A stretch of DNA of 64,000 nucleotides from IMG/VR virus record IMGVR_UViG_3300029288_000083, positions 30,130 through 94,129 of that record; one strand, 5' to 3'. Positions 5,272 through 54,152 of the stretch are shown here, one piece after another (the stretch's first letter is position 1; each line of letters starts with the position of its first letter). Origin of the DNA: a virus. Taxonomy: Duplodnaviria; Heunggongvirae; Uroviricota; Caudoviricetes. The translations under genes were made by a program, and so were the position numbers. The notes under the pieces were generated by a model. It was not told the DNA's origin. It did no database searches and saw only the letters and a program-made list of their open reading frames with translations.

Positions 5272-5272
5272 A

Positions 5273-5794
5273 TTAGCAAATTAATAATTTTTTATTCTGT
5301 GTTGGTTTAAAGCATGTCTCGTAATTTTTCGTATGTTGTTCTTGAATATTTACATTACGATCTTTTAATATTCTTATTATATCGAATGATAAACTACCAT
5401 GCATATGCAATCTTTTTCGATTTGTTTCAACGCCATAAACAAATTCGTGTTCGCAAATAAAATTGTTAGCATCTATTGAATATGTAATGCCGCTTAATGG
5501 CACGCCGCTTATTGCATACGCATTAAGTTCTGTTTCTGTCGGATGAATAATGGCGTCTTCAGACTTTGACGATATGATGCTTATTTTATCATGCCGTCTT
5601 TTCAAATTTTTGTATAATACTGAACTTGTATTTAGTTTTGTTTTTGCATCTGTAATCTGTTCAATTGAAATATGCGTGCCATCACGGTACACATGCTTGC
5701 ATATAATATCATACGGATTGATTGAATACGTTACTCCATTAACAGGATTGTCAACGCTATGCGATATATCATATAGATTAATTTCATTTTTCAT
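5273..5794 (-). CDS. hypothetical protein with internal duplication
   Basis: Two internal repeats (GVTYSINPYDIICKHVYRDG / GITYSIDANNFICEHEFVYG). Confidence 0.4.
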   Translation of the reverse strand: MKNEINLYDISHSVDNPVNGVTYSINPYDIICKHVYRDGTHISIEQITDAKTKLNTSSVLYKNLKRRHDKISIISSKSEDAIIHPTETELNAYAISGVPLSGITYSIDANNFICEHEFVYGVETNRKRLHMHGSLSFDIIRILKDRNVNIQEQHTKNYETCFKPTQNKKLLIC

Positions 5795-6024
5795 TGTTCG
5801 CAGATTAATAGTACTTTTTTATTTGTCGGAAGTATTTCTTTATTGAATTGCGATTTTGCTCGCATGCTGCCTAATGTAACTGCTGGATTTTTTTCAAGAA
5901 AATCTTTCAAATGATTTTTCTTGTTATACGCAAACCATATGTCACCAAGATCTTCGCCACTTAATTTGTATAATGGTCTTCCTGACTTGGTTAGAACCCA
6001 ATCATCGTTTGTTTCGTTTTTCAT
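5791..6024 (-). CDS. hypothetical protein
   Basis: ORF overlapping the upstream gene by 4 nt. Confidence 0.3.
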   Translation of the reverse strand: MKNETNDDWVLTKSGRPLYKLSGEDLGDIWFAYNKKNHLKDFLEKNPAVTLGSMRAKSQFNKEILPTNKKVLLICEQ

Positions 6025-6348
6025 ATCAATTACAAATTAATAGTATGTTATTTGAAGACGGCTTAATTGCTTCATTTTCAATTGCAATATTATCCCATCT
6101 TTTATAGAATTCTTCGGTGAATTTTATATCAAGCATTACGTATTCACGAAGCTTTTCATATTGCTCAGGATCCATTTTATGCATGACGTTTTTTCTTGAT
6201 TGTTGAATACTTCTTTTTTAAACTTTTTGCAAATGCAATTATGTCATCTGCAATTTCTTCTCGTTCACCGTGCGGTTTATCACTAAGCAATTCTTCAATT
6301 TCTTCTACTGCACGTTTTCCTGCTAGATAATCAATGTCCATTCCCATA

Positions 6349-6826
6349 TCAAATAATTTTAAAAGTTTTTGTTTCCATTACAGGCCACCAATATTTACCG
6401 CCATTGTAACCTTTATCTTCTGGCCATTTTTGTTCATAATACTCTGGTAGTTTTTCGATTAATCTTGCTCGATGCGCTCTATGAAAATTTTCGTTTCCTA
6501 ACCACCAAGGCATATCAATCGGTGCCATACCAATGTTCCCATGATTCAAGTCTTGTATAAATTCTGGTGTCCATTCAAAAAAAAAGTGGCATTGTATTTT
6601 TATAGCCTCTTGATGTCCATTCCTTTATTGTAAAATCATGATACACTTTTAATGCATCGATGCATCCTTCCCATGCTTTAACAGCAGGATGGTTTTGCCA
6701 ACTTACTTTATTGCCTTCAAGTACATTAATGATTTGTTTATTTTCAATTCTTTGTTTTCCTAATCTGCGATAATCTAAAGCAGCAACGGATTCAATAAAA
6801 GACGGATATGGTAAAAATGTTTGCAT
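6349..6826 (-). pseudogene. denV-like pyrimidine-dimer DNA glycosylase (Pyr_excise family), frameshifted into two ORFs
   Basis: ORF 6575..6826 (…LDYRRLGKQRIENKQIINVL…WQNHPAVKAWEG…) and ORF 6349..6549 (…PWWLGNENFHRAHRARLIEKLPEYY) resemble the N- and C-terminal parts of endonuclease-V/denV-like proteins. They are separated at an A9 homopolymer (6583-6591). Confidence 0.45.
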
Positions 6827-6924
6827 ATAATATTATTTTTATATTATATACAGAACTATTTTATAGTTTTCATACAATGTCTTTATCTCTATTGTTATTT
6901 TAGATATAGTTGTTATTGTCAAAA

Positions 6925-6972
6925 CTAAAAAAGTTCACTGGATGCAAATTAATGTATATCCAGTGAACTTTA
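6925..6972 (-). terminator. rho-independent terminator downstream of the PARP gene
   Basis: 12-bp perfect stem agttcactggat / atccagtgaact. An A6 run on plus gives a U-run on the minus transcript. Confidence 0.55.
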
Positions 6973-6992
6973 CTTTATGTTATTTGAATTTA

Positions 6993-8291
6993 TTAATTTG
7001 CGATTTCAATAATGTATTTTACTGTTACTTGAGCAGCATCATAAACAATGAATTCATCATTTCTTAAATCGGCGCCGCCATGAGCATATACAGAATCAAA
7101 TCCTTCACGTGCAAGTTTTTGTTTGTTCAATGTGTAGCAATCAGAATTGTGATGTGTTATATTTTTTTGATTACCTACATGAAAATCAAATAATGCAAGA
7201 TATGCAGAACTTGATGACCCGCCTGACCAACATGCACCACGAAGAGATGTATAGCCAATTGATTTTTGAGCTTTATTTGCACCGTAAATACCATCGCCAA
7301 ACATTGAACCCGTATGAACCGCACCAGATGGACGAATTAATAAACCTGATTGTAAAATGTTGAACCAGTTTTCATTTCGTGAACCATGCCAAAATAATTC
7401 GCATTTTTTATCTTTTGCATTTGCAACATATGCATCAAACTTTTCTTGTGTTTTTCTGTTTGTAACACGGAATGCAGAACGGAATTGATTTGCATTCGGT
7501 CCCATCATTTTTTTGATGATTTCGATTTCTTGCGCATTTGCTTCAACCGCCTCAAGTCCAAGTGTTTGCAACATGTCCATAGATTTCTTATGGCCTTCAG
7601 CATCAGGTTTATTTGCTTTCGCTTGTTCTTTTTGCTTGCGAAGTAATTCAACTTGACCTGCCATTGTATCAAGAACCGCTTGTTCATCAGCCATCAATTT
7701 ATGAGCGCGTTTTGTATCAGCGTCAGATTTGAAACTTGATAATAAATGGTCTCGTACATTTGACATTTTACGAGGAATGATTGAATAAAGTTTCAATAAG
7801 TTATTATTGATACCTTCAAGATGCGCAGATTTCTCTGTTAGAATTTTTGAAAGTGTATCAATAATTTTTTGAGCTTCATCAACCATAGCTTGGGTTACTT
7901 CACTTTGCGTAACCGTATAGTTTTCTTGTACCGTCTTTTTAGCATAAGCCATCAATTTGTCGAATAATGCTTTAACTGCACGATTTTGAATTTCCGCTTG
8001 TGTGACAGTTTCACCATTTGCTTCAGCATCAGCAGTTACTTCCGCAATTGCTTCTTTGAACAAATGTGTCATATCCTCATAGCCTTTTTTTGTTTTGCTG
8101 CGGTAAATTTTATCCCACTCATGCGCAGAATATTCGTGTGTAACTTCGGTACCTTTAATACGTCCGTATTGCACGATAAAATTACCTGATGCTTGTTCGA
8201 ACATATTGTAATACTTGTTGTTATTATCTGCGGTAACGCAAACTAATTTAACAACTTTTTTTCCTGGAACTGTATAATCTTTTAATTGCAT
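6993..8291 (-). CDS. poly(ADP-ribose) polymerase-like protein (WGR domain + PARP catalytic domain)
   Basis: N-terminal WGR-like segment (YYNMFEQASGNFIVQYGRIKG). The C-terminus has PARP catalytic signatures in order: 'FWHGSRNENWFNILQSGLLI' (His-Gly-Ser), 'GSMFGDGIYGANKAQKSIGYTS' (Tyr) and 'NDEFIVYDAAQVTVKYIIEI' (catalytic Glu, cf. PARP1 '[20 protein letters not shown]'). Confidence 0.8.
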   Translation of the reverse strand: MQLKDYTVPGKKVVKLVCVTADNNNKYYNMFEQASGNFIVQYGRIKGTEVTHEYSAHEWDKIYRSKTKKGYEDMTHLFKEAIAEVTADAEANGETVTQAEIQNRAVKALFDKLMAYAKKTVQENYTVTQSEVTQAMVDEAQKIIDTLSKILTEKSAHLEGINNNLLKLYSIIPRKMSNVRDHLLSSFKSDADTKRAHKLMADEQAVLDTMAGQVELLRKQKEQAKANKPDAEGHKKSMDMLQTLGLEAVEANAQEIEIIKKMMGPNANQFRSAFRVTNRKTQEKFDAYVANAKDKKCELFWHGSRNENWFNILQSGLLIRPSGAVHTGSMFGDGIYGANKAQKSIGYTSLRGACWSGGSSSSAYLALFDFHVGNQKNITHHNSDCYTLNKQKLAREGFDSVYAHGGADLRNDEFIVYDAAQVTVKYIIEIAN

Positions 8292-23214: not shown

Positions 23215-23286
23215 AGGGGTCGAACCTACATCAACCGGTTCGAAGCCGGACATGCTATCCATTGCACCATGCAGCCGTTTAATGAA
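23215..23286 (-). tRNA. tRNA
   Basis: T-arm gtagg/ggtcgaa/cctac. Acceptor with wobble pairs. Confidence 0.5.
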
Positions 23287-23971
23287 TTCTTTTATAACAG
23301 TTTTCTTCATAAAACGCATTCATATATCGTTTCATCCATCTATTTACCTTTTGCGGTTTTATATTTATTATAACCGCAATTTTTGACACCCAACCAAATT
23401 TTTTAAAATCTATATCAGTTTTTTTTATGATTTCTATAATATCTTTATATTTTTCTTTGTTTTGTTCAAATACTGCATTTGCGTAATCATTTCGATTACC
23501 GTACTTGTGTCGTTTAAATTCTTTCAATACGTCATCAATATTGTATTTTCTATACGATCTATTTGAATTTATAAATTCTTCAAATAATTTGAATTCTGCA
23601 TCAGGATTGTTTAAAAAATCTTTTGCCGCTATTCTATAAACTATCCATCCATTTTCAATTAGAATATTGTCTCTTCTATTATCATATTCTATATTTGCTG
23701 CTGTTCTGTAATGCTGTATCCCATCAATTTCTATATCACATTTTAAATCAATTAAACCGAAATCCAAGAAAAAACCGTATGCTGGAAATTGATCTTGTAT
23801 ACTATATTTTTCATAATATCCATTATTTCTCAGAAATCCTTCAAATAATTTTTCTGGATAACTTCTGTTGTTTCTATTTGCTTTAGACCATCCAGGATGC
23901 CGACCTTCTGCGTGCACCTTTTTCATAGATACAGAAATTTTTTCTCTTGTCTTATTTGAAAGAACTTTCAT
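23279..23971 (-). CDS. DUF559/Vsr-like endonuclease-domain protein (homing-endonuclease-like)
   Basis: 'GFFLDFGLIDLKCDIEIDGIQHYRTAANIEYDNRRDNILIENGWIVYRI' resembles the DUF559 restriction-endonuclease-like fold. The C-terminal segment 'FGWVSKIAVIINIKPQKVNRWMKRY' is shared with HNH gene 26489..27067. Confidence 0.45.
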   Translation of the reverse strand: MKVLSNKTREKISVSMKKVHAEGRHPGWSKANRNNRSYPEKLFEGFLRNNGYYEKYSIQDQFPAYGFFLDFGLIDLKCDIEIDGIQHYRTAANIEYDNRRDNILIENGWIVYRIAAKDFLNNPDAEFKLFEEFINSNRSYRKYNIDDVLKEFKRHKYGNRNDYANAVFEQNKEKYKDIIEIIKKTDIDFKKFGWVSKIAVIINIKPQKVNRWMKRYMNAFYEENCYKRIH

Positions 23972-24300: not shown

Positions 24301-24370
24301 TTATTTATTTATTAAAAACAAATATACAACATTATAAAGGCAATAGCAATATATATGCTATTTATTTTCG

Positions 24371-24460
24371 AGAAATTGGTTGGATTCGAACCAACGATTC
24401 CTTTATGGAATACCGGCTTCCGCCAGCGCATTAAGCCACTCTGCCACAAAATCAATTTAG
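24371..24460 (-). tRNA. tRNA, class II (anticodon unresolved)
   Basis: T-arm gttgg/attcgaa/ccaac. About 90 nt long. Confidence 0.4.
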
Positions 24461-26488: not shown

Positions 26489-27067
26489 TTATATTTTTCT
26501 TTTATATGCATTTGCTTCAATTTTTGGCAAATGACGTTTCATCCAATCTCTAGTTTTTTGCGGCGTCATTTCAATAATTTCAGCAACCCTTTTGCACCAC
26601 CCAAATTCTTCAAAGTTTATATTTCCGTTTATAACCTTTTCTTTCAATTCTTCTATTGCGTCTTTCTTTTTTTGTTCTGATAAAAAACGTACCGTCTTGT
26701 AATATTTTTTTCTATATTCACGTGTCGAATTTTTATTTGCGCCTTTATACGTTGCAGTTAAAGAATGACAGTTTGGACAAAGAACTCTTAAATTATCAAT
26801 ACTGTTATTAATAGGATTCCCGTCAATATGATCTATTTCTAAAGGAATCTTGTTTGTATATTCATTAACTTCATGCCAACCACACATCGAACATTTATTA
26901 TCTGCATTAGATAAGATCCAACGTCTAGCCGGACTTGTGATTTTTCGTTCATATGCATCAAGTTCAAGCCATTTTTGCAATAGCATGTTACTGAAGTATT
27001 CTGCTTGACATTTATTATCACAAAATTTATTGCCTTTAATTTCTTTTCCGCAATTGATACATTCCAT
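26489..27067 (-). CDS. HNH endonuclease
   Basis: 'CSMCGWHEVNEYTNKIPLEIDHIDGNPINNSIDNLRVLCPNCH' is a classic HNH. C-terminal DNA-binding-like tail is shared with 23279..23971. Confidence 0.6.
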   Translation of the reverse strand: MECINCGKEIKGNKFCDNKCQAEYFSNMLLQKWLELDAYERKITSPARRWILSNADNKCSMCGWHEVNEYTNKIPLEIDHIDGNPINNSIDNLRVLCPNCHSLTATYKGANKNSTREYRKKYYKTVRFLSEQKKKDAIEELKEKVINGNINFEEFGWCKRVAEIIEMTPQKTRDWMKRHLPKIEANAYKRKI

Positions 27068-30120: not shown

Positions 30121-30168
30121 ATTGTCAATTTTAATTTATTGTTATATACAGAACTTTAAATTAGTTTG

Positions 30169-30559: not shown

Positions 30560-31072
30560 TTATTTTACAATTTTACTATTATTGTCTAAATTACATAAAG
30601 TTCCTTTTACAAGAATCTTTTCTTTTAACTGAGTCCAATCAGTTATTTTATTTGAATCATACGGTTTTGCTCCGTCTGCTCTATTTATTGCTAACGTTAT
30701 ATGTGGAAATGCAATTGAACTTGCAAATTGGTCAAATCCTTTTACAATAACTTTTACAGCAAGAACTCTACCGTTTATCAAACCTATATGTGTTAATGTA
30801 ATGTCGAATTGCTTGCCAAGGTCAGGCAATAAGTTATTTGGTGTAGGACCCATTCCAACAGTTACGTGATGCGCAATTGTTTCCCAAGCTTGTGTTTGTT
30901 CCCAATTGTCAACAACAAGTTTACAAAGTTTATTTGCTCTGTCTTTTTCGTCAATAACGAATGCGTGATATGATATTCCCATCTGATTTAATTTATTGTT
31001 ATATACATAACATACAAATAGTTTAAGTTCATAATGTTGCATTAAATGAACTTTTATAAATGATAATAACAA
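30560..31072 (-). CDS. 2H phosphoesterase superfamily protein (LigT/CPDase-like)
   Basis: Two H-x-T/S-x motifs 'AHHVTVGMG' and 'FPHITLAIN' at the spacing expected for a 2H fold. The true start may be the internal Met (MGISYHAF). Confidence 0.5.
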   Translation of the reverse strand: MLLSFIKVHLMQHYELKLFVCYVYNNKLNQMGISYHAFVIDEKDRANKLCKLVVDNWEQTQAWETIAHHVTVGMGPTPNNLLPDLGKQFDITLTHIGLINGRVLAVKVIVKGFDQFASSIAFPHITLAINRADGAKPYDSNKITDWTQLKEKILVKGTLCNLDNNSKIVK

Positions 31073-31152: not shown

Positions 31153-31186
31153 AAAAACACTGGAACCTTTCGATTCCAGTGTTTTG
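31153..31186 (-). terminator. rho-independent terminator after the flotillin gene
   Basis: Stem aacactggaa/ttccagtgtt flanked by A6 and T4. Confidence 0.5.
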
Positions 31187-31204: not shown

Positions 31205-32788
31205 TTATGCAGATAAATCAGTTTTATCCGATTTTTTAGCATTATCAGTAATTGCCTTTGTCACTTTATGAGCGGCAACTGATTCGTTTGTTGCCTTTTC
31301 ACCTGCTCCTTGCATGAAACCAGGTAGTTCAGCGCCTACTTGATTGAATACGTCCTTCATAGGAGGTAACATTGCAAACAGATTTTTCATGAAACCTGCA
31401 GTAGAGTTAGAATCGCCGTTAGAACCGCCGTTGCCAGAATCCCATACAGTGATTTTATCAAATTTGATATTTTTGATTGCGTCCACTTGAATTCTCATGA
31501 TTTCAGGTAATTTATCAGCAATCATCAATTGTGCAGCCTTTTCAGCAGAACCTGCAGCCGCAACGATTTTAGCAAAACCTTCCGCTTGTTTTGTTAAGAT
31601 TTCTTGGTGTCCTTTCGCTTCAGCTTCCATTTTAAGGAATACAGCATCAGCCTCACCTTGAGCAATTTTACGAGTTGCATCAGCAGTTGCTTCAGCTTCA
31701 ACGATTTGTTTTTGTTTTGCAATTTCAGCAGGAACAACAGTATTTGCATATTGTGTTGCTTTATCTTTTTCTGCACGTTTTACCTCAGCAAGACGTTCTG
31801 CTTCGTAAGAATCTTTAAGAGCTTCAGCAGTTGATACCTTTTGAGCAGTTATTGCCTTTTTGTTTGCTTCAGCTTCAGCAACTTGTCTATCAGCAGATGT
31901 TTTAGCAATTGCAATGGCTGCAGTATTTTCTCCTTCAATTGCTTTTGCATTTGCAGCAGCAGTTTGTACACGTTTCGATTGTGCAGCTTCAGCTTCACCT
32001 ACTTCAGCAGCAGCGGTTGCAGCAGCAATTGATTTACGTCGAACCTGGTCAGCATTTGCTTCACCGATTTCTGTATCTGCTTCAAGAGCAGCAACTTCAG
32101 TACGTTTTTGTTTTTCTGCAGTTGCAACACCGATTGCTCCTTCACGTTGTTTATTTGCAACAGATACAGCAGCTTCATTTATAACACGAGCAGCAGCTTC
32201 TTTACCAAGAGCATTAAGATATCCCGATTCATCATTGATGTCAGTTACGTTAACGTTGATAAGTTTCAAACCAATTTTTTGTAACTCATCCTCAAGATTT
32301 GTTTGAATTGCTGTTAAAAATTTATCACGGTCTGAATTGATTTCCTCAATGTCCATTGTTGCAATAACAAGACGCATTTGACCAAAGATGATATCTTGAG
32401 CAAGTGATGCAATTGTTGCACGGTCAAGTCCAAGTAATCGTTCAGCTGCATTTTGTCGAACACCGTCTTCAGCAGAAATAGCAACAGTAAATGTTGAAGG
32501 CACATCAATACGAATGTTTTGTTTTGATAACGCATTTTTTAAATTTACATCAAGAGCAATAGGTTTCAAATCAAGAAACGCAAAGTCCTGAATAACGGGC
32601 CATATAAATTGACCGCCACCGTGTGTAACATGAGCAGTTGTTGTTTCGCCCGATGCAGATTTTCCCGTCTTCCCATAAACAACCAAAAGTTTATCTGACG
32701 GACAGCGTTGATAACGTTTTACCATTGCTGCGATTAATGCGAATACCGACAATGCGGCGACGCAAACTAGAATTAAAGTGTACACCAT
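31205..32788 (-). CDS. flotillin-like SPFH/Band-7 protein
   Basis: N-terminal TM helix, then an SPFH-like region. Long Ala/Glu-rich coiled coil with 'EAEA' repeats, typical of flotillin/YqiK. Confidence 0.65.
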   Translation of the reverse strand: MVYTLILVCVAALSVFALIAAMVKRYQRCPSDKLLVVYGKTGKSASGETTTAHVTHGGGQFIWPVIQDFAFLDLKPIALDVNLKNALSKQNIRIDVPSTFTVAISAEDGVRQNAAERLLGLDRATIASLAQDIIFGQMRLVIATMDIEEINSDRDKFLTAIQTNLEDELQKIGLKLINVNVTDINDESGYLNALGKEAAARVINEAAVSVANKQREGAIGVATAEKQKRTEVAALEADTEIGEANADQVRRKSIAAATAAAEVGEAEAAQSKRVQTAAANAKAIEGENTAAIAIAKTSADRQVAEAEANKKAITAQKVSTAEALKDSYEAERLAEVKRAEKDKATQYANTVVPAEIAKQKQIVEAEATADATRKIAQGEADAVFLKMEAEAKGHQEILTKQAEGFAKIVAAAGSAEKAAQLMIADKLPEIMRIQVDAIKNIKFDKITVWDSGNGGSNGDSNSTAGFMKNLFAMLPPMKDVFNQVGAELPGFMQGAGEKATNESVAAHKVTKAITDNAKKSDKTDLSA

Positions 32789-32837
32789 AAGTAATTAAGA
32801 TTAAGTTAGAAATTAAAGATATATTTAAGATTAGAAA

Positions 32838-33386
32838 TTACTGATAAGTTACAATAATGTTGCCATCATTGATTTCATAAACTGTTACTGACCGTCCGGT
32901 TTCAATTGTACCACAATTTGATATTGCATCAAGAATTTTTACAGAACCGCCAAAATCAATTTTTATTTTTCCTTTGCTATTCTCTGGTATTTTTAAATAC
33001 ACAGTACCCACTCTACCGATAAGTGTATTTATATCAGGTGTGCCATCTTGTCGAAATTTTCGCATTCCATACATTGTTAAAACCAATACAACAATTGTTA
33101 GTACGCCACAGATTGTTCCTAATAATAATGAGATTCCTTGTGAGAATCCTATATTATGAAATTGCAATGTTGATAACGATGTGACAAGTAATAACTTAAC
33201 AAGGTTTGTATATGTAAACCAAGTAAAATTATGATCTAATGAATCACCATCAGTATCGTGGTCACTATTGATTCCAAATAAATTTGCAACAAACATTGCC
33301 AAGAAAATAATACCGGAGAATATAGCAATAAAAATTAATGTATATTCAAACCCGGAACATGTTGAAAGATAATTTGTAAAATTCAT
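32838..33386 (-). CDS. NfeD-like membrane protein
   Basis: Several N-terminal TM helices. C-terminal beta domain 'GKIKIDFGGSVKILDAISNCGTIETGRSVTVYEINDGNIIVTY'. Sits immediately downstream of the flotillin gene (canonical NfeD-SPFH pairing). Confidence 0.5.
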   Translation of the reverse strand: MNFTNYLSTCSGFEYTLIFIAIFSGIIFLAMFVANLFGINSDHDTDGDSLDHNFTWFTYTNLVKLLLVTSLSTLQFHNIGFSQGISLLLGTICGVLTIVVLVLTMYGMRKFRQDGTPDINTLIGRVGTVYLKIPENSKGKIKIDFGGSVKILDAISNCGTIETGRSVTVYEINDGNIIVTYQ

Positions 33387-33387
33387 A

Positions 33388-33882
33388 TTATAAATTCATA
33401 TTAATAATTGTTTGTGTTACTCGATTTATGTGTTCAGTTTCCTCTTCTTCTGTATATCGTTGATTACTGCCTGTTAATTCAAAATAACGATTTGGGTCAT
33501 AATCACGACAATGCGATAAATAACTATTGTGAGCATTTTTAATTTTCAAACCAATTTCTTGAACAGAAATTTCGCGAATACTAATTAAAGATGATTCGTA
33601 CGAATTTGTTCCGTACGTTTGTTCTTCAGATATTAAAATGTATTGTTTATTGCAATACGGACATTTATATATCATGTCATGCGAATTGGGTACACGATAC
33701 CAGCCGGTTTTACCGTAATAATAATCGCGTTTATTTGGAAGGATTTTTGTGCAGGTACAAGAATCTGAGTTTTCTTTCCTGAATAATTTTGAAATTTTAG
33801 TTGAGATATTTTCGCTAATCGAATACACCCGAATAAGGTGTTGTGACGTTGGATTTATTTCTTTAAAGATCATATCAATCAA
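33388..33882 (-). CDS. hypothetical Cys-containing protein
   Basis: ORF. 'CPYCNKQY' zinc-ribbon-like. Confidence 0.3.
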   Translation of the reverse strand: MIDMIFKEINPTSQHLIRVYSISENISTKISKLFRKENSDSCTCTKILPNKRDYYYGKTGWYRVPNSHDMIYKCPYCNKQYILISEEQTYGTNSYESSLISIREISVQEIGLKIKNAHNSYLSHCRDYDPNRYFELTGSNQRYTEEEETEHINRVTQTIINMNL

Positions 33883-34184: not shown

Positions 34185-34382
34185 ATGTATCTTAAAAATA
34201 TAGGATGTCTGGCGTAAGCTCGTTCCGAAGAACTACATGTTATAAAATAACACCCGTCTAGTTGTCCACTAATGTTAAAGCTTGGACCTATATTTAATTT
34301 TTTAAAAACGATGACTACTCAAACATAATCCACAATTCAATAACTGTTTCTAAAGGCCTACAACTTCGGCATCGTTTATTTG

Positions 34383-34453
34383 TAACGCATATAGGATTCG
34401 AACCTATGTTTCAACCGTCAGCGATTGCGCCCTTACCCCTAGACTAATGCGTC
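34383..34453 (-). tRNA. possible tRNA (poorly resolved)
   Basis: T-arm atagg/attcgaa/cctat. Acceptor aacgcat/atgcgtc. Anticodon arm not resolved. Confidence 0.3.
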
Positions 34454-36371: not shown

Positions 36372-36385
36372 ATATGTTATTTTTG

Positions 36386-36477
36386 TAGCGAGTACAGGAT
36401 TCGAACCTGTGTATACCCTAATTAAGGGACTCCGTGCTTATGAGGCAGGTGAGATGACCTAACTTCTCCAACTCGCG
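36386..36477 (-). tRNA. tRNA, class II with a CUCAUAA-like anticodon loop (unusual)
   Basis: Perfect acceptor agcgagt/actcgcg. T-arm acagg/attcgaa/cctgt. Long variable stem-loop (tccc…ggga). Loop ttatgag. Confidence 0.45.
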
Positions 36478-36499: not shown

Positions 36500-36633
36500 T
36501 TGCGAGGGCCGGACTCGAACCGACGACCACGAGATTAGGAGTCTATTTCGTATTTGTTGCTGTATGAAATCTTTAATCAGATTTCAGTTTTTTGAATACG
36601 TGCTCTACCAACTGAGCTACCTCGCAATATGTT
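36500..36633 (-). tRNA. tRNA gene interrupted by a ~60-nt insert (intron-like)
   Basis: Perfect acceptor ttgcgagg/cctcgcaa. T-arm gccggactcgaaccgac. D-arm gtgctctaccaactgagctacc (cf. tRNA 36214..36286). Internal hairpin 'gaaatctttaatcagatttc'. Confidence 0.5.
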
Positions 36634-39096: not shown

Positions 39097-39106
39097 ATAA
39101 AATTTG

Positions 39107-39350
39107 CGGTCCTAAAAGGAGTCGAACCTTTCATCACCGGCCTCTGCCGGTATTTCCCTGGAAACTTCAGGACCAAGTCAGACGTGCTCACCGTTACACT
39201 ACCAGGCCATTACGCCCAGATTGGATTCGAACCAATACTTTCCGAGATTTTTGTTTGCAATTGCAAACTTGTGGAACGAGACGGATTTGAACCCACATCT
39301 CAGGCTTTTCAGTCCTGCGCGAACTGACCATCTGCGCTAACTTCCCAATT
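39107..39350 (-). other. cluster of irregular/degenerate tRNA-like sequences
   Basis: Two T-arm-like elements (aaagg/agtcgaa/ccttt, attgg/attcgaa/ccaat). A Phe-GAA-like element at ~39275-39347 with poor stems. A perfect palindrome gtttgcaattgcaaac. None folds cleanly by eye. Confidence 0.3.
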
Positions 39351-40006
39351 TATGTTATTAGCTTTTCGTATATTGCTAATTCCTTTTTTTGTATTATTTC
39401 AATATTCAGGTTATGTTGTTCCTGAACTTTAATCATTTTATTTTTATCATCACCCCACCAATATCCTTTTACTTCGAAATACTTATTTAATTTTGGGCTA
39501 TAAAAATCTGGTGTGTACATATGTGTTATACCGCTTTCATCTTCCCATTCATATGAATGCGTCGAATTTCCTACACCTATTTTTATCCATTCATTGTCAA
39601 TTAAATCGAGAACCTTTGCAAATCGAAGTTCCCATGTTCCTTGTACCTTTACTTTATCACCATTCGCTTTTTCATATTCGAACCATTTGCATTTCCCACC
39701 AGGATTATGCAAACTCATTCGTTCTGACGTTTTTTTACGTTGTTCAGCAGTGTGAGTTTTACCTAAAAATGATGGCGTTATTTCGCCATTTGCAATTTTT
39801 GCTGATAACGTTTTACCCATTTGTGCAACAGCATCGCTTGTTTCTTTTGATAAACCTTTATTCCAAATTTCTCTGGAACCATTAGCATAACCTATATTAG
39901 GATTATGATTTTGACCATCACCATGCATTCGCCATATATGTGTAGCAATTCCTTTATATGGAAATTCTTTACCACAATGGGGACATATTTTTGTTTCTTT
40001 TATCAT
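39350..40006 (-). CDS. zinc-finger nuclease-like protein (paralog B)
   Basis: 'CPHCGKEF…GIATHIWRMHGDG' and 'MYTPDFYSPKLNKYFEVKGYWW'. Confidence 0.4.
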   Translation of the reverse strand: MIKETKICPHCGKEFPYKGIATHIWRMHGDGQNHNPNIGYANGSREIWNKGLSKETSDAVAQMGKTLSAKIANGEITPSFLGKTHTAEQRKKTSERMSLHNPGGKCKWFEYEKANGDKVKVQGTWELRFAKVLDLIDNEWIKIGVGNSTHSYEWEDESGITHMYTPDFYSPKLNKYFEVKGYWWGDDKNKMIKVQEQHNLNIEIIQKKELAIYEKLIT

Positions 40007-40647: not shown

Positions 40648-41295
40648 TTATTCAAATTTCATTTTTCTTCCTTTATTCCATCCTTCCGGAATTGATTCAT
40701 CTTTCTTTATTTTTTTGTTTTGTTTTAAAGAAATGTTATGAATCCACATAAAACCAAATTGCGAATTTTTTTCACCTGCGTGTTTCCCACACGCAGATAA
40801 TCTCATTTTTTCTTTTGTTTCTTCACTATGTTTAGTTCCAGTTTTATCTGGTACTTTTATTTTTCCTTCGTTATGTAATTTTACTATAGTATTACGCATT
40901 CTATTAGAACATTCTTTCATATATTCGGTATCAGTTTCCATTTTACGTTTATGAACCAATCCACCGGCAATTGAACGTATTCGTTGATTTTCAACAGAAA
41001 TAAATCCGCCTTCGCCGTCAGGTCGTAAATTCATACACATACAATCGGTTTGCCATAATGATGAAATTAATTCCTTTTCTCTAATCTTCAATGAACATCT
41101 ATCAGGAAGAAACTCTAAAATTTCCTTTTTAAAATTTTCAATGCCATGTTTGCGAATTGCATTCCATAAATATTTTCCTGAACCCATATATCCATCATCT
41201 AAGTTAAATGTAGAATGCATGCCTATATAGTATTTTTCATTTATAAGATTTGTTATCTTATAAATGTAATGAATCGTGTACTGTTTCCTTGGCAT
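40648..41295 (-). CDS. GIY-YIG homing endonuclease
   Basis: 'YIYKITNLINEKYYIGMHS' (GIY-YIG). C-terminal 'WIHNISLKQNKKIKKDESIPEGWNKGRKMKFE' is paralogous to 25229..25984. Confidence 0.7.
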   Translation of the reverse strand: MPRKQYTIHYIYKITNLINEKYYIGMHSTFNLDDGYMGSGKYLWNAIRKHGIENFKKEILEFLPDRCSLKIREKELISSLWQTDCMCMNLRPDGEGGFISVENQRIRSIAGGLVHKRKMETDTEYMKECSNRMRNTIVKLHNEGKIKVPDKTGTKHSEETKEKMRLSACGKHAGEKNSQFGFMWIHNISLKQNKKIKKDESIPEGWNKGRKMKFE

Positions 41296-42866: not shown

Positions 42867-43460
42867 TTATTTATAAAGTTCTTTATCTAGCATGTATGAC
42901 AGAACTGGTAATGGCACTTGCGAAAGTACATCTTGATATTTTTTCAATTTGAAGAAGTCGCGTGCTTTTGTTGAAGAAGTTTCTTCAATTACGTTTGCTT
43001 TACCTAAATATATGTTAGGAGACTTTACATACCATTGTTTATCAATAACAGGCTGAATTCCTGTTCGCGATATCACAATAAATTTTGCATGTTCTTTTAG
43101 ATATGCGCTTTGGTAAAATGTATCGAAATTATTTGCAACATCTTGTCCCATGATAAAGTAAAAATCAATATCAGGATATTCAGATTTTAACGCTGCAAAT
43201 AAATCTCGTGTATAACCTGACAGCTGCATTCTTAATTCAATATCATTAACTATGATTCGAGGATCTTCATCGTTCAATGCAGCTTGAATCATTTCGATTC
43301 TATTTTCATAAGCTGTAAGATTTTTGCCTTGCTTATGCGTATTGCATGGAATAACCCAAATTTCATCGACATGGGTTTCTTTAAGAACATGATTTGCAAT
43401 AAAAATATGTCCACGTGTTATTGGGTCAAATGAACCTCCAAGTATTCCTACTGTTTTCAT
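42867..43460 (-). CDS. nadD: nicotinate/nicotinamide mononucleotide adenylyltransferase (NadD-like)
   Basis: 'VGILGGSFDPITRGHIFIANHV' (GxFxPxHxGH). Length 197 aa, typical of NadD. Confidence 0.7.
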   Translation of the reverse strand: MKTVGILGGSFDPITRGHIFIANHVLKETHVDEIWVIPCNTHKQGKNLTAYENRIEMIQAALNDEDPRIIVNDIELRMQLSGYTRDLFAALKSEYPDIDFYFIMGQDVANNFDTFYQSAYLKEHAKFIVISRTGIQPVIDKQWYVKSPNIYLGKANVIEETSSTKARDFFKLKKYQDVLSQVPLPVLSYMLDKELYK

Positions 43461-47106: not shown

Positions 47107-47775
47107 TTAAAAAACGTAATTGATGTCGTTTAAGTAATTACAATATGCACCAGTTAATAAAGCAGACCATGCGGTATTATCTGTAACATTAGGTATTGAT
47201 GTACCATCATTGTATTTTGATGTTGCAAGATTTTGAGCAAGCCACGTTTGTGTGCCAATTGTAACTGAAGTATAAAAATTTCCATCTCCATCTGTTACTG
47301 TTGTATTTGAATTATCGTTATCTCGTATGCAACGAATGCTTAACCCTGATGCGTAAAATGGATTTGAACTATAAAAAGTCGGACCTGTATAATTTAATAA
47401 ATGTTCAAAAGCAGAATTAACATTTGCAATTGTTGACGACCAATACTCTGCACCGGTATTTGGATGTGTTTGAAATGTGCCATCTGTAAAACGTGTACCT
47501 GCAGGCTTACCCGTGAAACCTGTTGTATTTGTTGCACCAGTATTTGGCGAATCCCAATGTGTTGTTCCAGTTTCTTTTAATGGTCCACCAGCAACTCCTG
47601 AACCGCCAAGATACGTGATAAGTGTCCAGAACTCTGTATCGGTTGGCACGTGCCAACCTGTAGGAGCAAGCTTGCCTGTATTTACTGCATACCAATTGTA
47701 CAATCTTCCATAACCTAAAACAGATGGCGATTGTACTACTTGCGGTTTATATCCTAACAGATGAATGAATTCCAT
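47107..47775 (-). CDS. FISUMP-domain (TIGR02145-like) protein
   Basis: 'RLYNWYAVNTGKLAPTGWHVPTDTEFWTLITYLGG…' and C-terminal '…GLSIRCIRD' match the Fibrobacter/Bacteroidetes paralogous domain. Confidence 0.5.
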   Translation of the reverse strand: MEFIHLLGYKPQVVQSPSVLGYGRLYNWYAVNTGKLAPTGWHVPTDTEFWTLITYLGGSGVAGGPLKETGTTHWDSPNTGATNTTGFTGKPAGTRFTDGTFQTHPNTGAEYWSSTIANVNSAFEHLLNYTGPTFYSSNPFYASGLSIRCIRDNDNSNTTVTDGDGNFYTSVTIGTQTWLAQNLATSKYNDGTSIPNVTDNTAWSALLTGAYCNYLNDINYVF

Positions 47776-48127: not shown

Positions 48128-48760
48128 TTATTTGAATCTTCCTTGTAAATGATTATAATTTTGCAATTCATAAATAGTTTTATTATGATCTATGCAAAGT
48201 CTTTTCAATAATACTTCTTCTAATGTATAACACAATGCAAATGTTATATCGTGTATACTTTTAAGCAATTTTATTTTTTCAAATACTTCATTAATATAAA
48301 TATCTTTAAATGTAATATCATTAAATCCCAAAAGCCCACTGCATATAATATTTCCTATGTTATCAATCGAAATACCTAATTGCATAACTTCTTTGTTGAA
48401 ACTACAAGATCTTAATTTTTCTGTAATTATATCAGCATCTGTTTTTGGCATTTCATATAAAGTTGCATCAATATCAATATGTATGTATGGTTCTTTTTGA
48501 AATTCTTGTACTTGAAATTTTCCAATGTAAATTAATCTATCATCTATAATTGGAAAATTAATTATTTCAACATTATTCTTATCAATAATATCTTTTATAA
48601 CTTCATAGCCAGCAACATCAGTATACATTTTATAATCTGCTATTTTTGAATGAACACTGTAAGATTTTTGCAAATATTGTTTCATACTACGAATAGTAGA
48701 AAATCCTGCATTTAATCTTTCTCCTTCAAAAGTATTATATGTCTGAATTATTTTATGCAT
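48128..48760 (-). CDS. hypothetical protein (possible fibre assembly factor)
   Basis: Lies between two fibre genes. No motif. Confidence 0.3.
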   Translation of the reverse strand: MHKIIQTYNTFEGERLNAGFSTIRSMKQYLQKSYSVHSKIADYKMYTDVAGYEVIKDIIDKNNVEIINFPIIDDRLIYIGKFQVQEFQKEPYIHIDIDATLYEMPKTDADIITEKLRSCSFNKEVMQLGISIDNIGNIICSGLLGFNDITFKDIYINEVFEKIKLLKSIHDITFALCYTLEEVLLKRLCIDHNKTIYELQNYNHLQGRFK

Positions 48761-51008
48761 AAACCTTTCCTCTTATAGTTCCAGTTAATGTAACAGAAAC
48801 ATATGTTGTTGCAGGGTCAAAAGTTGCGTCATGACTAACTGCGAAAGTTAAGCCATCAGATATTTTTGGAATTGAATTTGTTCCTGATTGATATGTTCCG
48901 TCAAATTCAGATGTTATGACATATCTATATCCGTCACCTGCTAGATTACCGTATGAACTATCATAACTAACGTACGCACTATTTCTAGCGCCAAATTGAC
49001 TTATCGTGAATTTTGTATTTATTGTTGATATTACTCTATCAGTTAATAAAATTTGACTGAAGCCATCAAAATCAACGTATCCTTCAGTTAATCCTGTGAA
49101 GATATTGATTGTATCTGTTGATGTGCTGGCTTTCATTCTAAAAATAACTTCAGCAGTAAAGAAGCCTCCTTGTAAAATGGTTCCTTTTACTGTTAAATCA
49201 GGATTACTATTATTCTGCCATGTATACGCGTTTATTTTATTATCGACATATTTTTTGTTTACAACTTCTAAATCGTTTATAAATGCTAAATCATTATTAT
49301 ATACTATTTTTCCATCGCCTTGTATATAAACCTTTTCATTGTTTTCAGTTAAGAATGAAGCTATTTTTTCTGTATCTGCAAGATATGTACGCCCAGTACT
49401 TCCATCAGATTTACATGCGTTTAATGAGAATCCTGCACCACTAGGCGCAGTTGCACCTTGGTAACTTGTAATTGATACTGGTGCGTACGCGCCACCTGTC
49501 GAATTTGTAAAACCTGCTAGTTGCATTCCGCCTATAGCATGTCCAACACCTGATACCATACCAGCAACTTGTCCATCTATTGCAGGTCCAAACGGTAATG
49601 ACCCGAAAGGCGTGGCTGCCATGTGTATATTTCGATAATACGTAGATGCATTTCCATTTAATGTGAATACTTGGTTTGCACCTAAATATGAATATCCGCC
49701 AATAAGTAATTGTTCATTAAATTGTGTTGTGCCTGTAACTGTGCCACCTGTTAATGGAAGATAACTTCCAGATAAACCACTTATTGCGCTATCAACATAA
49801 CCTTGTGTAGGAAACTTATTATTATTACTTGTTCCTGTTACGACACTTGTAATACCTGAAAGAACAGCTAAATTTGTTGTTGTAATTGTTGACGATTCGA
49901 CAATTTTTCCAAATGAACTTATCATAACGCGTCCATTAACTAAAGCAGTTGACGAGTTTGTTCCGCCATTTGCTATAGGTAATAACAAATTAGATATAAC
50001 ATTTGAAACTTTATTATTTACCCATTCAACATCGGGAATTGAACGGTTAACAAAGTTTGCGCTAAAATCATTATTGTAGGTCATACCAGTAAATGATAAT
50101 GATCCGCTTGATATTTCAAACGAATTATTTGCAACTAGCCAGTAAGCGTCAGCATTCGCGCTGATATTACTGAATGAACTCATTGGGTTACCAAAACTCA
50201 ATGTATGTCCTGCACCAAATACATAAGTATCTTCTGTAATTGCTCCACCGAATTTAATAACTTCATTTGAAATTGTTAATCCGTTTTCTGCTGTTAATTT
50301 CGGAATACTTGCAATTTGCTTATCTACATATCCTTGTGTAACTAATTTATCGTTATTTATATCTGGACTGCCTACGCCTATCGTTATTCCTGTGATTCCG
50401 TCTAATAAATTTAAAATATTTACAGAAACAGTGGATTCAATAATTGTGCCATTTTCGCTTATCATTACAAATCCATTTGCTAAAACCGCATTTGAATTTG
50501 TTCCACCATTTGCTATCGGCAATATTCCAGAAACTTGCGAATCCAAATCTATTTTATTCGTCGTGCTCAAGAATCCGCCGCTTACAGATAAAGGTCCATC
50601 AGTTAAAGATGATAAATTTATGTTAGAGAATTCTGGTGCAGAACCAGACTTAACATCTTGGTCCAAACTTCCAAGTAAACCCCATTGATACGCTTCTATG
50701 ACAGTATTTTGAATTTTAGCCAATTGCGTATATGCGTTATTGCTTATACCTATTAAGTTATTGTATTGAAATAAAGAAAGGTGATAAAAGTCATCATCTA
50801 AACCTCCTCCTTGTTTTGAACCTAGTGCATTATGTTCGATTGCTGAAATATCGCCTGTCAAAGATACCCATGCGCCATTTACAAAACCTTGTAAATCAAC
50901 ACCGTTCCATCTAATCATTCCACCAACACCAGCATCGCTAGTATTCTGTAACAATTTTAATGTGCCATCTACTTGTATTGAATATTCTATTCGTTTAATT
51001 AACTCCAT
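48753..51008 (-). CDS. large tail fibre protein
   Basis: 751 aa. Conserved N-terminus shared with 45840..47033. Repeated 'LPIANGGTNS' segments. Ser/Gly/Thr-rich. Confidence 0.55.
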   Translation of the reverse strand: MELIKRIEYSIQVDGTLKLLQNTSDAGVGGMIRWNGVDLQGFVNGAWVSLTGDISAIEHNALGSKQGGGLDDDFYHLSLFQYNNLIGISNNAYTQLAKIQNTVIEAYQWGLLGSLDQDVKSGSAPEFSNINLSSLTDGPLSVSGGFLSTTNKIDLDSQVSGILPIANGGTNSNAVLANGFVMISENGTIIESTVSVNILNLLDGITGITIGVGSPDINNDKLVTQGYVDKQIASIPKLTAENGLTISNEVIKFGGAITEDTYVFGAGHTLSFGNPMSSFSNISANADAYWLVANNSFEISSGSLSFTGMTYNNDFSANFVNRSIPDVEWVNNKVSNVISNLLLPIANGGTNSSTALVNGRVMISSFGKIVESSTITTTNLAVLSGITSVVTGTSNNNKFPTQGYVDSAISGLSGSYLPLTGGTVTGTTQFNEQLLIGGYSYLGANQVFTLNGNASTYYRNIHMAATPFGSLPFGPAIDGQVAGMVSGVGHAIGGMQLAGFTNSTGGAYAPVSITSYQGATAPSGAGFSLNACKSDGSTGRTYLADTEKIASFLTENNEKVYIQGDGKIVYNNDLAFINDLEVVNKKYVDNKINAYTWQNNSNPDLTVKGTILQGGFFTAEVIFRMKASTSTDTINIFTGLTEGYVDFDGFSQILLTDRVISTINTKFTISQFGARNSAYVSYDSSYGNLAGDGYRYVITSEFDGTYQSGTNSIPKISDGLTFAVSHDATFDPATTYVSVTLTGTIRGKVYA

Positions 51009-52568: not shown

Positions 52569-54152
52569 TTATGCGCCTCCGCCTGTTATAAAATCAATAG
52601 TATCATTGATTCCATCTGTTGACATTAAATAATATAATGATATTTCATCATCTGTTGCTAATTGATAGCCTGCAATACTTCCGTTCCAATAAACTTTATC
52701 ACCAACTTGTATATCAATAATTGCTCTTGGCGTTACTCCGGAATCTCCACTAAAATAACAAGAACAATTGAGTTTGGTATTATCGCCTACATCAATTCCA
52801 ACCCCGTTTATTTCAACTTTGACATATGAATTATTTACGGGCGTTGTTGATATACCAAGCGTTGTTGCTAATGAACCGTCTGCTGTTGTAACAAGACAAT
52901 CCATTTTTTTATCGCTAGCTGTATCTTGAATCGACGCAAACGCAGTTGCCCACACTGCAGCGTTTGGTGTATCAATTACGCATATGTATGTTTTATATGT
53001 TATTGTATTTACCCACAATGTACCTATTTCTGCTGTTTCGTACGATACAGATGGCGGGATACTACTATCACCAGCGTTTGGATTACGTGCTGCATTTATT
53101 GTTTTTCTTTGAAATCCAGTATGACCAGATTCGTTGAATCCCAATTCAAATAACTCCGAGTGATTTGCAGTTCCGCTGCCTGGCGAACCTATTGTTCCAC
53201 TTATTGCTGCTATATCATTGTTGCTGATTGACGCGCTTAAACTTGTACAAAAATGTGTTCGAAGTACTTTGTACAATTTTTTATCTGGTGCTGTTATGTT
53301 TCCATTATCATAAGATAATATTTGACCTGCTAAATAAGTATAACGTTTTCTTAAATCTGCTCCTGCATCGTGGTGAGTTGTTATACTTGTAATTACATTA
53401 CTTAATAAAGTGCCAGGCGTTATTGCTGGCGCATTTATTGATTGTCCTGTTTTATAATTCAAATAATTTTCAGACGTTCCTTCTGCTGAAACACCCCAAC
53501 TCCAAGGACGTAAATGATTGAATCCTGACGCTGAACTGTAATTGGCAGGTACATATACTATACCTAAAAGTACAGATTCATCTGCAAACAATCCTGCATT
53601 GTTTAATTGAGTTTCAACGTATGATACATTGAAAAGATCCGTTAAATTTGTCGAACCATTCACGACAGTTATTTTTGCTTTGTAAAAAGCAGTGTCTGAT
53701 ATTTCTGCTCTGTTTGGATAACCACTAGATGCATATATTAAATCATATCGACCATACGATGATGTTGGTAATACTGTTATATCGCCTGGTGCATTATCTG
53801 CTTGAACTACTGCTTTGTGACGATATGTTACGCCATTAATTCTTACATAGCCATTTGTTATTCTAATGTATAAAGGGTCGGCGTCGCCGCCCGCTCCTTC
53901 GATTGAAACAACTTGCATTCCATTTATAATTGCATTTTCTGTATTTAATGCAATTATTTGTTTTGAATCTGATGTGTACAATTGTCCAGTGTACAGATTT
54001 ATTCCAATCTCACCTTGATAGATTGTTTGATTTGTCCATGTACTTGCATCGTCAACATGATTTGTTCCAGGAACTGCTACAACTGGAGATTCAGATTTAT
54101 CTGTCCAGTATTTTGAAATTCTTCTAGAAAATTGTGTTATTATGTTGCTCAT
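52569..54152 (-). CDS. structural protein (tail/baseplate-like)
   Basis: 527 aa, Ser/Thr/Gly/Asn-rich. Confidence 0.4.
   Translation of the reverse strand: MSNIITQFSRRISKYWTDKSESPVVAVPGTNHVDDASTWTNQTIYQGEIGINLYTGQLYTSDSKQIIALNTENAIINGMQVVSIEGAGGDADPLYIRITNGYVRINGVTYRHKAVVQADNAPGDITVLPTSSYGRYDLIYASSGYPNRAEISDTAFYKAKITVVNGSTNLTDLFNVSYVETQLNNAGLFADESVLLGIVYVPANYSSASGFNHLRPWSWGVSAEGTSENYLNYKTGQSINAPAITPGTLLSNVITSITTHHDAGADLRKRYTYLAGQILSYDNGNITAPDKKLYKVLRTHFCTSLSASISNNDIAAISGTIGSPGSGTANHSELFELGFNESGHTGFQRKTINAARNPNAGDSSIPPSVSYETAEIGTLWVNTITYKTYICVIDTPNAAVWATAFASIQDTASDKKMDCLVTTADGSLATTLGISTTPVNNSYVKVEINGVGIDVGDNTKLNCSCYFSGDSGVTPRAIIDIQVGDKVYWNGSIAGYQLATDDEISLYYLMSTDGINDTIDFITGGGA

Follow-up and report, generated by a model that had tools for sequence, protein, structure and literature searches.

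Why would a bacteriophage carry a flotillin together with the small membrane protein that accompanies flotillins in bacterial operons? The question is raised by two adjacent open reading frames (ORFs) in a 64,000-nucleotide stretch of DNA (hereafter the window, meaning the whole stretch that was analysed), which covers positions 30,130 to 94,129 of the IMG/VR record IMGVR_UViG_3300029288_000083, a virus of the Caudoviricetes. An earlier note, made from the letters alone, had read 31205..32788 as a membrane-anchored SPFH protein of the flotillin/YqiK kind and 32838..33386 as its NfeD-like partner. Both ORFs were found with exactly these ends, and both lie on the minus strand. Judged by its sequence and gene arrangement, the pair is an SPFH2–NfeD2 operon (YqiK/YqiJ, FloT/YuaF), that is, an operon of a known kind in a rare phage setting. 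Such flotillin–NfeD operons are widespread in bacteria and their physiological role is debated. Our preferred reading, to which we give a probability of about 0.6, is that this intact operon is an accessory module of a very large, tRNA-rich phage that probably infects Bacteroidota and would encode a cage that maintains the host membrane.

The two genes are arranged as an NfeD2–flotillin operon

Since both genes are on the minus strand, 32838..33386 is the upstream, promoter-proximal member of the pair and the order is NfeD, then flotillin; the earlier note, in which the strand was unstated, had named the right partner but had placed it after the flotillin as the next gene. The arrangement fits the SPFH2–NfeD2 class of Hinderhofer et al. 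2009 (PMC2636767), the pairs of which co-evolve and are transferred laterally as a unit (PMC2636767). In the yuaF–floT (yuaG) operon of Bacillus subtilis and the yqiJ–yqiK operon of Escherichia coli, a short NfeD protein with three transmembrane helices is likewise encoded first and the flotillin second, and the flotillins of both operons display the N-terminal anchor, SPFH domain, A/E-rich helices and Flot region that are also seen in the window. Unlike these two operons, the one in the window is carried by a phage and not by a cell, it lacks a third gene of the yuaI type, and control by a stress sigma factor, which is sigma-W in B. subtilis, is not to be assumed for it.

The two ORFs are separated by a short AT-rich spacer (Table 1) in which a terminator scan found no terminator-like sites, and a terminator-like hairpin that begins 20 nt past the flotillin stop codon is the likely end of the transcription unit. 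By homology, neither ORF is a chance reading frame, because at least 8000 homologues of the flotillin were found at E ≤ 1e-10 and because the partner lies directly upstream of the flotillin in 17 of 17 other loci, a regularity that also bears out the canonical NfeD–SPFH arrangement claimed for the pair.

The downstream gene encodes a full-length flotillin

The flotillin matched Pfam Band_7 (PF01145) with 98.9 bits against a gathering score of 23.6 (E = 4.6e-28; aa 33–214, profile positions 7–175 of 176) and Pfam Flot (PF15975) with 24.2 bits, just under the gathering score of 27. The NCBIfam FloT model NF058507 aligned with aa 11–477 and gave 181.6 bits against an equivalog cut-off of 700, which separates the protein from the equivalogs of B. 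subtilis FloT; in its predicted architecture it is a full-length FloT-type homologue, not a FloT equivalog. The best sequence matches in the PDB were human flotillin-1 and flotillin-2 of the solved 44-mer cage (9BQ2, 9L3G; flotillin-1 with E = 6.5e-23, aa 55–475). In line with this, the top four Foldseek matches of the AlphaFold (AF2) model, computed as a single chain from an alignment of 30 homologues, were flotillin complexes (9L3G, 9BQ2; E = 3.6e-15), which ranked ahead of stomatin, prohibitin, HflK/C, QmcA and vault in the PDB fold search. Unlike the protein of the window, the human flotillins have neither a transmembrane anchor nor an NfeD partner, and QmcA is a short SPFH protein of the stomatin type.

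At its N-terminus the flotillin has a single hydrophobic helix (aa 1–26 by hydropathy) followed by a basic KRYQR motif. The anchor is conserved in the 30-sequence alignment, where it leads into an invariant basic motif (R25..R28-C29-P30-S31-D32). The gene call of JGI (P0001) yields a protein of 506 aa that would lack this anchor, and the 527-aa start is preferred because the anchor is conserved across homologues. By the positive-inside rule, the body of the protein would face the cytoplasm. Residues 215–400 consist of 27% Ala, 13% Glu and 10% Lys and contain 25 EA/AE dipeptides, and helices were predicted at aa 190–292, 300–391 and 395–439, two of them very long and the rest shorter; in the solved flotillins the cage wall and roof are built from this A/E-rich helical region. 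Every column that is invariant across 29 homologues is retained in the phage protein. Taken together, the profile matches and the predicted fold make the identification as a flotillin secure: the transmembrane-anchored SPFH domain and the EA-repeat helical region proposed earlier were both recovered, and the protein resembles flotillins along its full length rather than a generic coiled-coil structural protein.

The upstream gene encodes a short NfeD2-type partner

A direct database search with the 182-aa upstream protein returned itself alone, and its match to Pfam NfeD (PF01957, aa 120–179) reached 21 bits, below the gathering score of 29.1; of the two Pfam families named in the earlier note, Band_7 was thus matched directly and NfeD through the orthologues of the protein. 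To collect these, the ORF immediately preceding the flotillin gene was taken from related loci, and the resulting set was used for a profile search. Pfam NfeD was matched by 7 of the 12 orthologues (best E = 5.6e-7), and the top PDB match of their profile was YuaF (2K14), the partner encoded in the B. subtilis floT operon (E = 7e-5; 4.6e-4 with a wider profile), followed by the 'stomatin operon partner protein' of Pyrococcus (3WWV). The AlphaFold model, built with 42 homologues, had a predicted local distance difference test score (pLDDT) of 83.7, and its top five Foldseek matches in the PDB were all NfeD structures (probability 1.00, E from 9e-6 to 2.5e-4), namely YuaF (2K14), 1510-C (3WWV), YbbJ in the QmcA–YbbJ complex (8Z5G), 3CP0 and MTH693 (2K5H). 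YuaF was the best match of both the profile and the model, while YbbJ comes from the SPFH1–NfeD1 cage of E. coli. Despite the sub-threshold direct Pfam score, the orthologue profile and the predicted fold confirm the protein as an NfeD family member, in agreement with the labels it carries in databases ('NfeD family protein' at NCBI, 'membrane protein implicated in regulation of membrane protease activity' at JGI). In the single-sequence PDB search the top matches were 'Bagel' designed beta-propellers, caused by repeat-like G/T-rich strands; they were rejected, the profile and fold searches having given NfeD.

Three predicted membrane helices and a five-stranded C-terminal domain, the latter being the partner-binding domain in the NfeD family, correspond to the polytopic protein with an NfeD-like beta domain that had been described from the sequence, and the three-helix architecture fits the '3TM protein prototyped by YqiJ/YuaF' (PMC11237479). 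No protease family was matched in Pfam by the 182-aa protein and no ClpP-type protease domain is present, and it was therefore assigned to the short NfeD2/YqiJ/YuaF type. Helices 1 and 2 are joined by an acidic, D-rich loop (aa 39–52) with the pattern D-x-D-x-D, which resembles a cation-binding motif; in the 42-sequence alignment of phage and bacterial family members, conservation of D44, D46 and D48 is 90% or more.

The pair is co-inherited in a lineage of large phages

Among the 17 other loci, the spacer between the two genes measures 0–55 nt in 15, and in L013 and L017 the upstream ORF overlaps the flotillin gene by 14 nt. The upstream ORF encodes a family membrane protein of 164–203 aa in all of them except Vibrio phage KIT04, where it is 82 aa long and has no beta domain. 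Because the flanking genes differ between loci, the pair can be regarded as a self-contained cassette. The conservation in related phages that the earlier note had proposed to look for was observed, the cassette being present on other large-phage contigs with 61–79% flotillin identity. The closest syntenic relative (L021, 78%) carries it inside an array of 25 tRNAs, and in L022 and L026/L007 (69%) the gene order is Thg1, metallophosphatase, Rnl2, NfeD and flotillin, with PhoH, DnaJ and an NAD-dependent ligase also among the neighbours. Further copies lie on a 318-kb contig that encodes a T4 prohead protease (L023, 63%) and on a 147-kb contig with phage-type context (P0022).

Cellular copies were surveyed with a pattern scan of 185,579 GTDB species-representative genomes. 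At least 594 cellular relatives were confirmed; the best 80 of these (51–59% identity) are almost all from Bacteroidota, distributed over many families, and no cellular copy among the matches listed exceeds about 60% identity. The chromosomal cassettes of Bacteroidota, exemplified by L024 and L025 (54–56% identity, L025 being located on a 4.6-Mb chromosome), are the closest cellular relatives and consist of the same two-gene unit with a spacer of 24–36 nt, while the NfeD protein of the window shares only 24–28% identity with bacterial partners of this type. In a neighbour-joining tree of 108 flotillins, 87 of them cellular, the cellular sequences formed a group free of viral-context members in 60 of 100 bootstraps (94 of 100 when two IMG/VR sequences were admitted to it), the window flotillin grouped with copies from phage contigs and not with any bacterial family, and the group formed by the window, L021 and P0003 was recovered in 199 of 200 bootstraps. 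From this tree and the identities above we conclude that the window flotillin belongs to a large-phage-resident lineage, set apart from the sampled cellular copies, that would derive from a Bacteroidota-type flotillin.

The flotillin and NfeD trees agree, and the pairwise distances of the two proteins are correlated (Mantel r = 0.79, a value reached in 0 of 5000 permutations), which demonstrates that the two genes are co-inherited and co-evolving, as has been reported for the SPFH2–NfeD2 class. The NfeD gene evolves much faster, with 41% identity to its L021 counterpart compared with 78% for the flotillin. The ratio of nonsynonymous to synonymous substitution rates (dN/dS) was 0.13–0.22 for the flotillin and 0.24–0.51 for NfeD, with synonymous sites near saturation; the flotillin is under purifying selection. 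Both genes have a GC content at third codon positions (GC3) of about 0.20, matching the AT-rich phage. An intact pair under purifying selection in a phage lineage implies a benefit that is visible within a single infection cycle.

The setting is rare. Only 10 of 50,697 GenBank phage records contain a flotillin match, and two annotated complete genomes, csAssE-Sib (OR575929; 34.5% identity) and Vibrio phage KIT04 (LC487410; 32.9%), encode a full-length 'flotillin family protein'; these two flotillins (33–35% identical) form separate deep branches. As in the window, a YqiJ-like membrane protein (164 aa) is encoded directly upstream in csAssE-Sib. A pattern-based scan of IMG/VR yielded 14 flotillin loci; the IMG/VR loci L009–L011 showed mixed phage-type and metabolic genes in a pooled Pfam scan and were treated as database-labelled viral contigs only. 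In BFVD a single viral protein with a full-length flotillin-type fold was matched (A0A679DKI1, 473 aa, 31% identity, E = 1.3e-27), the remaining viral SPFH proteins of that database, from giant viruses and various phages, being short and resembling stomatin, HflC or prohibitin. Since 2006 the literature has recorded short SPFH/Band 7 proteins, with their role unexplained, in giant viruses and in T4-like, Vi01-like and other phages (PMC1524935, PMC10892097, PMC13239085). Resembling stomatin, HflC or prohibitin, or being lipoproteins, they measure about 170–420 aa; unlike the window flotillin, they have no long flotillin helices, and no NfeD partner has been reported for them. No PHROGs v4 family was matched at E ≤ 0.001 by either the flotillin or the NfeD protein, so the cassette is not in that catalogue. 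The setting appears to be undiscussed in the literature, the gene kind itself being well known.

Phage setting and probable host

The phage origin assumed for the window is well supported by its tRNA genes, its PHROG matches and the large contigs on which the same sequence was found. The flotillin pair occupies a gap in an island of about 25 kb that contains 50 tRNA genes according to ARAGORN and 52 tRNA matches according to Rfam, all co-oriented, on the same strand as nearly all ORFs and covering all 20 amino acids. Among the 71 ORFs scanned, 68 PHROG families were matched, including a polynucleotide kinase/phosphatase (PNKP), homing endonucleases, the proximal subunit of a tail fibre, nucleotide kinases and an exonuclease, and endonuclease V is a further T4-type gene of the window. 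Pfam matches comprised PARP, NADAR, R2K ATP-grasp, a T4-type pyrimidine-dimer glycosylase, RNase HII and sigma-70 region 2, and ribosomal or other core cellular genes were absent from them. At least four independent data sets contain the identical flotillin, and the contigs that carry it measure 379 kb (ENA ERZ27247363 k141_1283972) and up to 425 kb (the JGI copy). The PARP-like protein is nearest to that of a 462-kb uncultured phage (46% identity), followed by those of Cellulophaga phages.

Two ORFs of the window point to a host in the Bacteroidota/FCB group, one with a C-terminal sorting domain for type IX secretion (Por_Secre_tail, 28.6 bits, which barely passes the gathering score) and one with a Fib_succ_major domain. 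The type IX sorting domain is a marker of Bacteroidota, and the host of the phage is probably a member of this phylum. An identical 17-kb contig (L004, JALOBO010000029.1) sits in the metagenome-assembled genome (MAG) GCA_023228225.1 of a 'Candidatus Pacearchaeota archaeon', after which the NfeD gene of that contig is named in NCBI nr. This placement is probably a binning error that put a phage contig into an archaeal MAG; phage contigs often end up in MAG bins of low-GC DPANN archaea.

A proposed membrane cage and its possible roles

SPFH proteins assemble into large membrane rings or domes, such as the flotillin-1/2 44-mer, HflK/C and the 26 heterodimers of QmcA and YbbJ, which project into the cytoplasm, and NfeD partners have been proposed to promote this oligomerisation (PMC12624060, PMC13086221). 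By analogy, the phage flotillin would be anchored in the host inner membrane by its N-terminal helix during infection and its long helices would mediate oligomerisation into a dome or cage on the cytoplasmic side. The NfeD protein with its three helices would sit in the membrane patch so enclosed, and its beta domain would bind the cage and promote or stabilise its assembly, as modelled on flotillin-1/2, QmcA–YbbJ and HflK/C. The cage might then keep the host membrane fluid, sealed and energised during the long infection needed by a very large genome, and may buffer membrane damage caused by stress responses or by membrane-targeting abortive-infection effectors. Membrane maintenance is the purpose we prefer, yet it is the least certain step of the proposal. 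If it holds, a membrane-scaffold module would join the host-like functions carried by very large phages, and the phage pair would offer a simple system for asking what a flotillin cage does.

Several observations weigh against this proposal. The flotillin model had a pLDDT of 67.8, a moderate value of the kind to be expected when a single cage subunit is modelled. Bacterial flotillin knock-outs often have mild phenotypes (PMC13086221), and the benefit to the phage may be subtle for that reason. The 13-member viral-context clade of flotillins was recovered in 49 of 100 bootstraps (35–49% over trees); a single monophyletic phage clade is thus weakly supported, and we do not claim a single acquisition. 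LR756500.1, which by one gene is the closest GenBank relative, showed no flotillin match, from which it follows that the module is dispensable. In the 64-kb window no capsid, portal or terminase genes were found, and since these hallmark genes are not in the window the phage assignment is strong but incomplete. Finally, the literature search found no paper that discusses a phage flotillin or flotillin–NfeD pair, or its function.

The genes that surround the cassette suggest a more specific role. RNA-repair, tRNA and NAD-salvage genes are recurrent neighbours of the phage cassettes: Rnl2 directly precedes NfeD in L022 and L026, Thg1 is present in L022, L026 and L023, the P0022 contig encodes Rnl1, a further RNA ligase and PTH2, and NAPRTase is directly downstream of the cassette in L023 and on the P0022 contig. 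In the unrelated, T5-like KIT04 (L002), an RNA ligase, a homologue of the PNK kinase, a PRPP synthetase and NAPRTase lie within 6 kb, and both the window and L021 contain tRNA arrays together with a gene of the 2H-phosphoesterase-like kind. Phages use such genes to offset the tRNA cleavage and NAD depletion imposed by host defences. The cassette could accordingly be dedicated to counter-defence, with the flotillin–NfeD cage protecting or repairing the inner membrane against pore-forming or depolarising abortive-infection effectors and complementing the tRNA, RNA-repair and NAD-salvage neighbours. Links of flotillin and YqiJ/YuaF operons to PspA-type membrane-stress systems (PMC11237479), the tethering of PspA by an SPFH protein in B. 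subtilis (PMC8581546) and an SPFH gene embedded in the rtc RNA-repair locus of Pseudomonas aeruginosa (PMC13086221) all speak for this possibility, which we nevertheless consider tentative and on balance unlikely. The argument is one of guilt by association, and accessory genes are clustered in large phages in any case; the contexts come from about four independent lineages, and L028 and csAssE-Sib have no such neighbours. Moreover, no anti-defence activity is reported for any SPFH protein in the literature searched, and the link to defence islands drawn in the earlier note found no support, since PADLOC-DB v2 gave no family at E ≤ 0.01 for the flotillin, the NfeD protein or the flanking 164-aa and 170-aa ORFs.

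A wider form of the same idea, in which large phages keep a flotillin–NfeD cage lineage of their own as a third counter-defence arm beside tRNA supply and repair and NAD+ salvage, is doubtful. As a variant, the cage may hold RNA-repair enzymes, or some other machinery of the phage, on a protected patch of membrane, which the SPFH gene of the rtc locus would fit. The recurrence beside RNA-repair, tRNA and NAD-salvage genes at least makes a part in the phage response to abortive infection a testable idea, directly so because one carrier, Vibrio phage KIT04, was isolated on Vibrio parahaemolyticus ATCC 17802, and a counter-defence role, if true, would raise the interest of the cassette substantially.

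It is improbable that the pair serves to capture or regulate a host membrane protease and so to alter the stability of phage or host proteins, in the manner of HflK/C with FtsH or of a stomatin with a long NfeD protease. SPFH cages of the HflK/C type do enclose FtsH, QmcA/YbbK interacts with FtsH (PMC2636767), and the JGI label of the window NfeD protein mentions membrane protease activity. Protease regulation, which the earlier note had ascribed to SPFH/NfeD pairs in general, is however documented for the SPFH1/NfeD1b and HflK/C branches and not for the flotillin/NfeD2 branch, which faces the cytoplasm and for which the searched literature documents no protease partner; the NfeD protein of the window is the short form without a ClpP-type protease domain, and no protease gene adjoins the cassette in any locus examined.

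Nor does the cassette look like a passenger that was recently captured from a host, has no phage-specific role and will soon be lost. Donors abound, given how common the cassette is in Bacteroidota, and the module is missing from LR756500.1; this explanation is still very improbable in view of the gap between the cellular copies (at most about 60% identity among the matches listed) and those on other phage contigs (61–79%), the low dN/dS of the flotillin, its phage-adapted GC3, the retention of all invariant columns and the recurrence of the identical gene in independent data sets. That the window instead stems from a cellular genome or a giant plasmid, as the contig in the archaeal MAG and the lack of capsid and terminase genes could be taken to indicate, is scarcely credible for a sequence with 68 PHROG families (among them T4-type PNKP, endonuclease V, homing endonucleases and a tail-fibre subunit), some 50 co-oriented tRNA genes in 25 kb, nearly all genes on one strand, closest protein matches in phages and no core cellular genes among its Pfam matches.

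Flanking genes and other features of the window

Table 1. Positions of the flotillin–NfeD operon, its parts and other features of the window.
Feature	Position	Strand	Basis or remark
NfeD2-type (YqiJ/YuaF-like) short membrane protein, 182 aa	32838..33386	minus	ORF; promoter-proximal member of the pair
NfeD membrane region, aa 12–113	33048..33353	minus	hydropathy; predicted AF2 helices 12–36, 59–78, 83–113
NfeD C-terminal OB-fold-like beta domain, aa 120–181	32844..33029	minus	Pfam stretch 120–179; five predicted AF2 strands 126–181
Intergenic spacer, NfeD stop to flotillin start, 49 nt, AT-rich	32789..32837	minus	sequence
Flotillin (SPFH2, FloT/YqiK type), 527 aa	31205..32788	minus	Band_7, FloT model, PDB sequence and Foldseek matches
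N-terminal membrane anchor, aa 2–25	32714..32785	minus	hydropathy (aa 1–26 hydrophobic); predicted AF2 helix 2–25
SPFH/Band_7 domain, aa 33–214	32147..32692	minus	Pfam; predicted AF2 alpha/beta domain aa 35–181
Ala/Glu/Lys-rich helical 'flotillin' region, aa 215–439	31472..32146	minus	composition, AF2, flotillin-1/2 alignment
Terminator-like hairpin, 14-pair stem, 4-nt loop, T-rich tail	31154..31185	minus	scan and sequence; match to consensus
164-aa ORF	33388..33882	minus	upstream of the NfeD gene, 1-nt gap
170-aa ORF	30560–31072	minus	directly past the flotillin terminator
tRNA island	16458–41755	minus	ARAGORN, Rfam
Two tRNA matches of about 128 nt	36500–36626; 16545–16673	minus	Rfam (44.7 and 40.9 bits); uncalled by ARAGORN
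tRNAs with irregular anticodon loops	24370–24453; 34382–34453; 39106–39174		ARAGORN
tRNA-Met, 93 nt	36385–36477		ARAGORN
Por_Secre_tail and Fib_succ_major ORFs	3565–4863; 47107–47775	minus	Pfam
Apparently split PNKP	286–756; 1296–1703	minus	HAD_PNKP phosphatase; AAA_33 kinase-like
NAD/ADP-ribose-related ORFs	6993–8291; 10004–11038; 42867–43460	minus	PARP-like; two NMNAT-type
Homing-endonuclease-like genes	23279–23971; 26489–27067; 39350–40006; 40648–41295	minus	among the tRNA genes
Large ORFs, 1221, 751 and 527 aa	60325–63990; 48753–51008; 52569–54152	minus	no Pfam/PHROG match

The 164-aa ORF upstream of the NfeD gene is probably co-transcribed with it because of the minimal gap between them (Table 1). 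It gave nothing significant in Pfam, PHROG, PADLOC or the PDB, two Pfam matches (E = 0.007–0.009) being judged spurious at scores far under gathering, and it lies outside the conserved cassette, not being present in L021. The 170-aa ORF on the other side of the operon had no informative database match; it weakly matches the cyclic phosphodiesterase (2H) domain of fungal tRNA ligase (21.4 bits against a gathering score of 23), also weakly resembles phrog_36523 and is conserved in L021 only, where it is kept at the same position with 55% identity.

Within the tRNA island there are several tandem duplicates, for example seven copies of Met-CAT and three of Gln-TTG. The two Rfam matches of about 128 nt may represent tRNA genes that are interrupted, by an intron or otherwise, and ARAGORN reported irregular anticodon loops in three tRNAs and a tRNA-Met of 93 nt (Table 1). 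The homing-endonuclease-like genes interspersed among the tRNA genes belong to the DUF559/MTES_1575, HNH, Phage_endo_I-like and GIY-YIG families.

The PNKP seems to be split into separate ORFs with a HAD_PNKP phosphatase domain (E = 5.6e-38) and an AAA_33 kinase-like domain (E = 4.3e-9); homologues of the AAA_33 ORF are encoded close to the flotillin cassette in L007 and L022, and Vibrio phage KIT04 has one next to its RNA ligase. The genes related to NAD and ADP-ribose code for a PARP-like protein (phrog_23333, E = 6e-57), two cytidylyltransferase-like proteins of the NMNAT type, one of them being a fusion with a phosphohydrolase-like part at the N-terminus, and a protein with a NADAR domain (E = 4.6e-42).

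None of the three large ORFs listed in Table 1 was matched in Pfam or PHROG, and the 1221-aa protein had no tblastn match among the 50,697 phage records. Against the same records, a megablast search with an 8-kb query around the flotillin pair matched a tRNA only, and the phage therefore has no close sequenced relative there. Strain-level variation was seen between two otherwise identical contigs, L003 and L004: in L004 two extra genes (positions 5114–7023 of that contig), coding for proteins of 271 aa (Phage_endo_I/DUF7487-like) and 283 aa, are inserted between the YqeY gene and a 75-aa ORF, and L003 is without them, which represents an insertion polymorphism.

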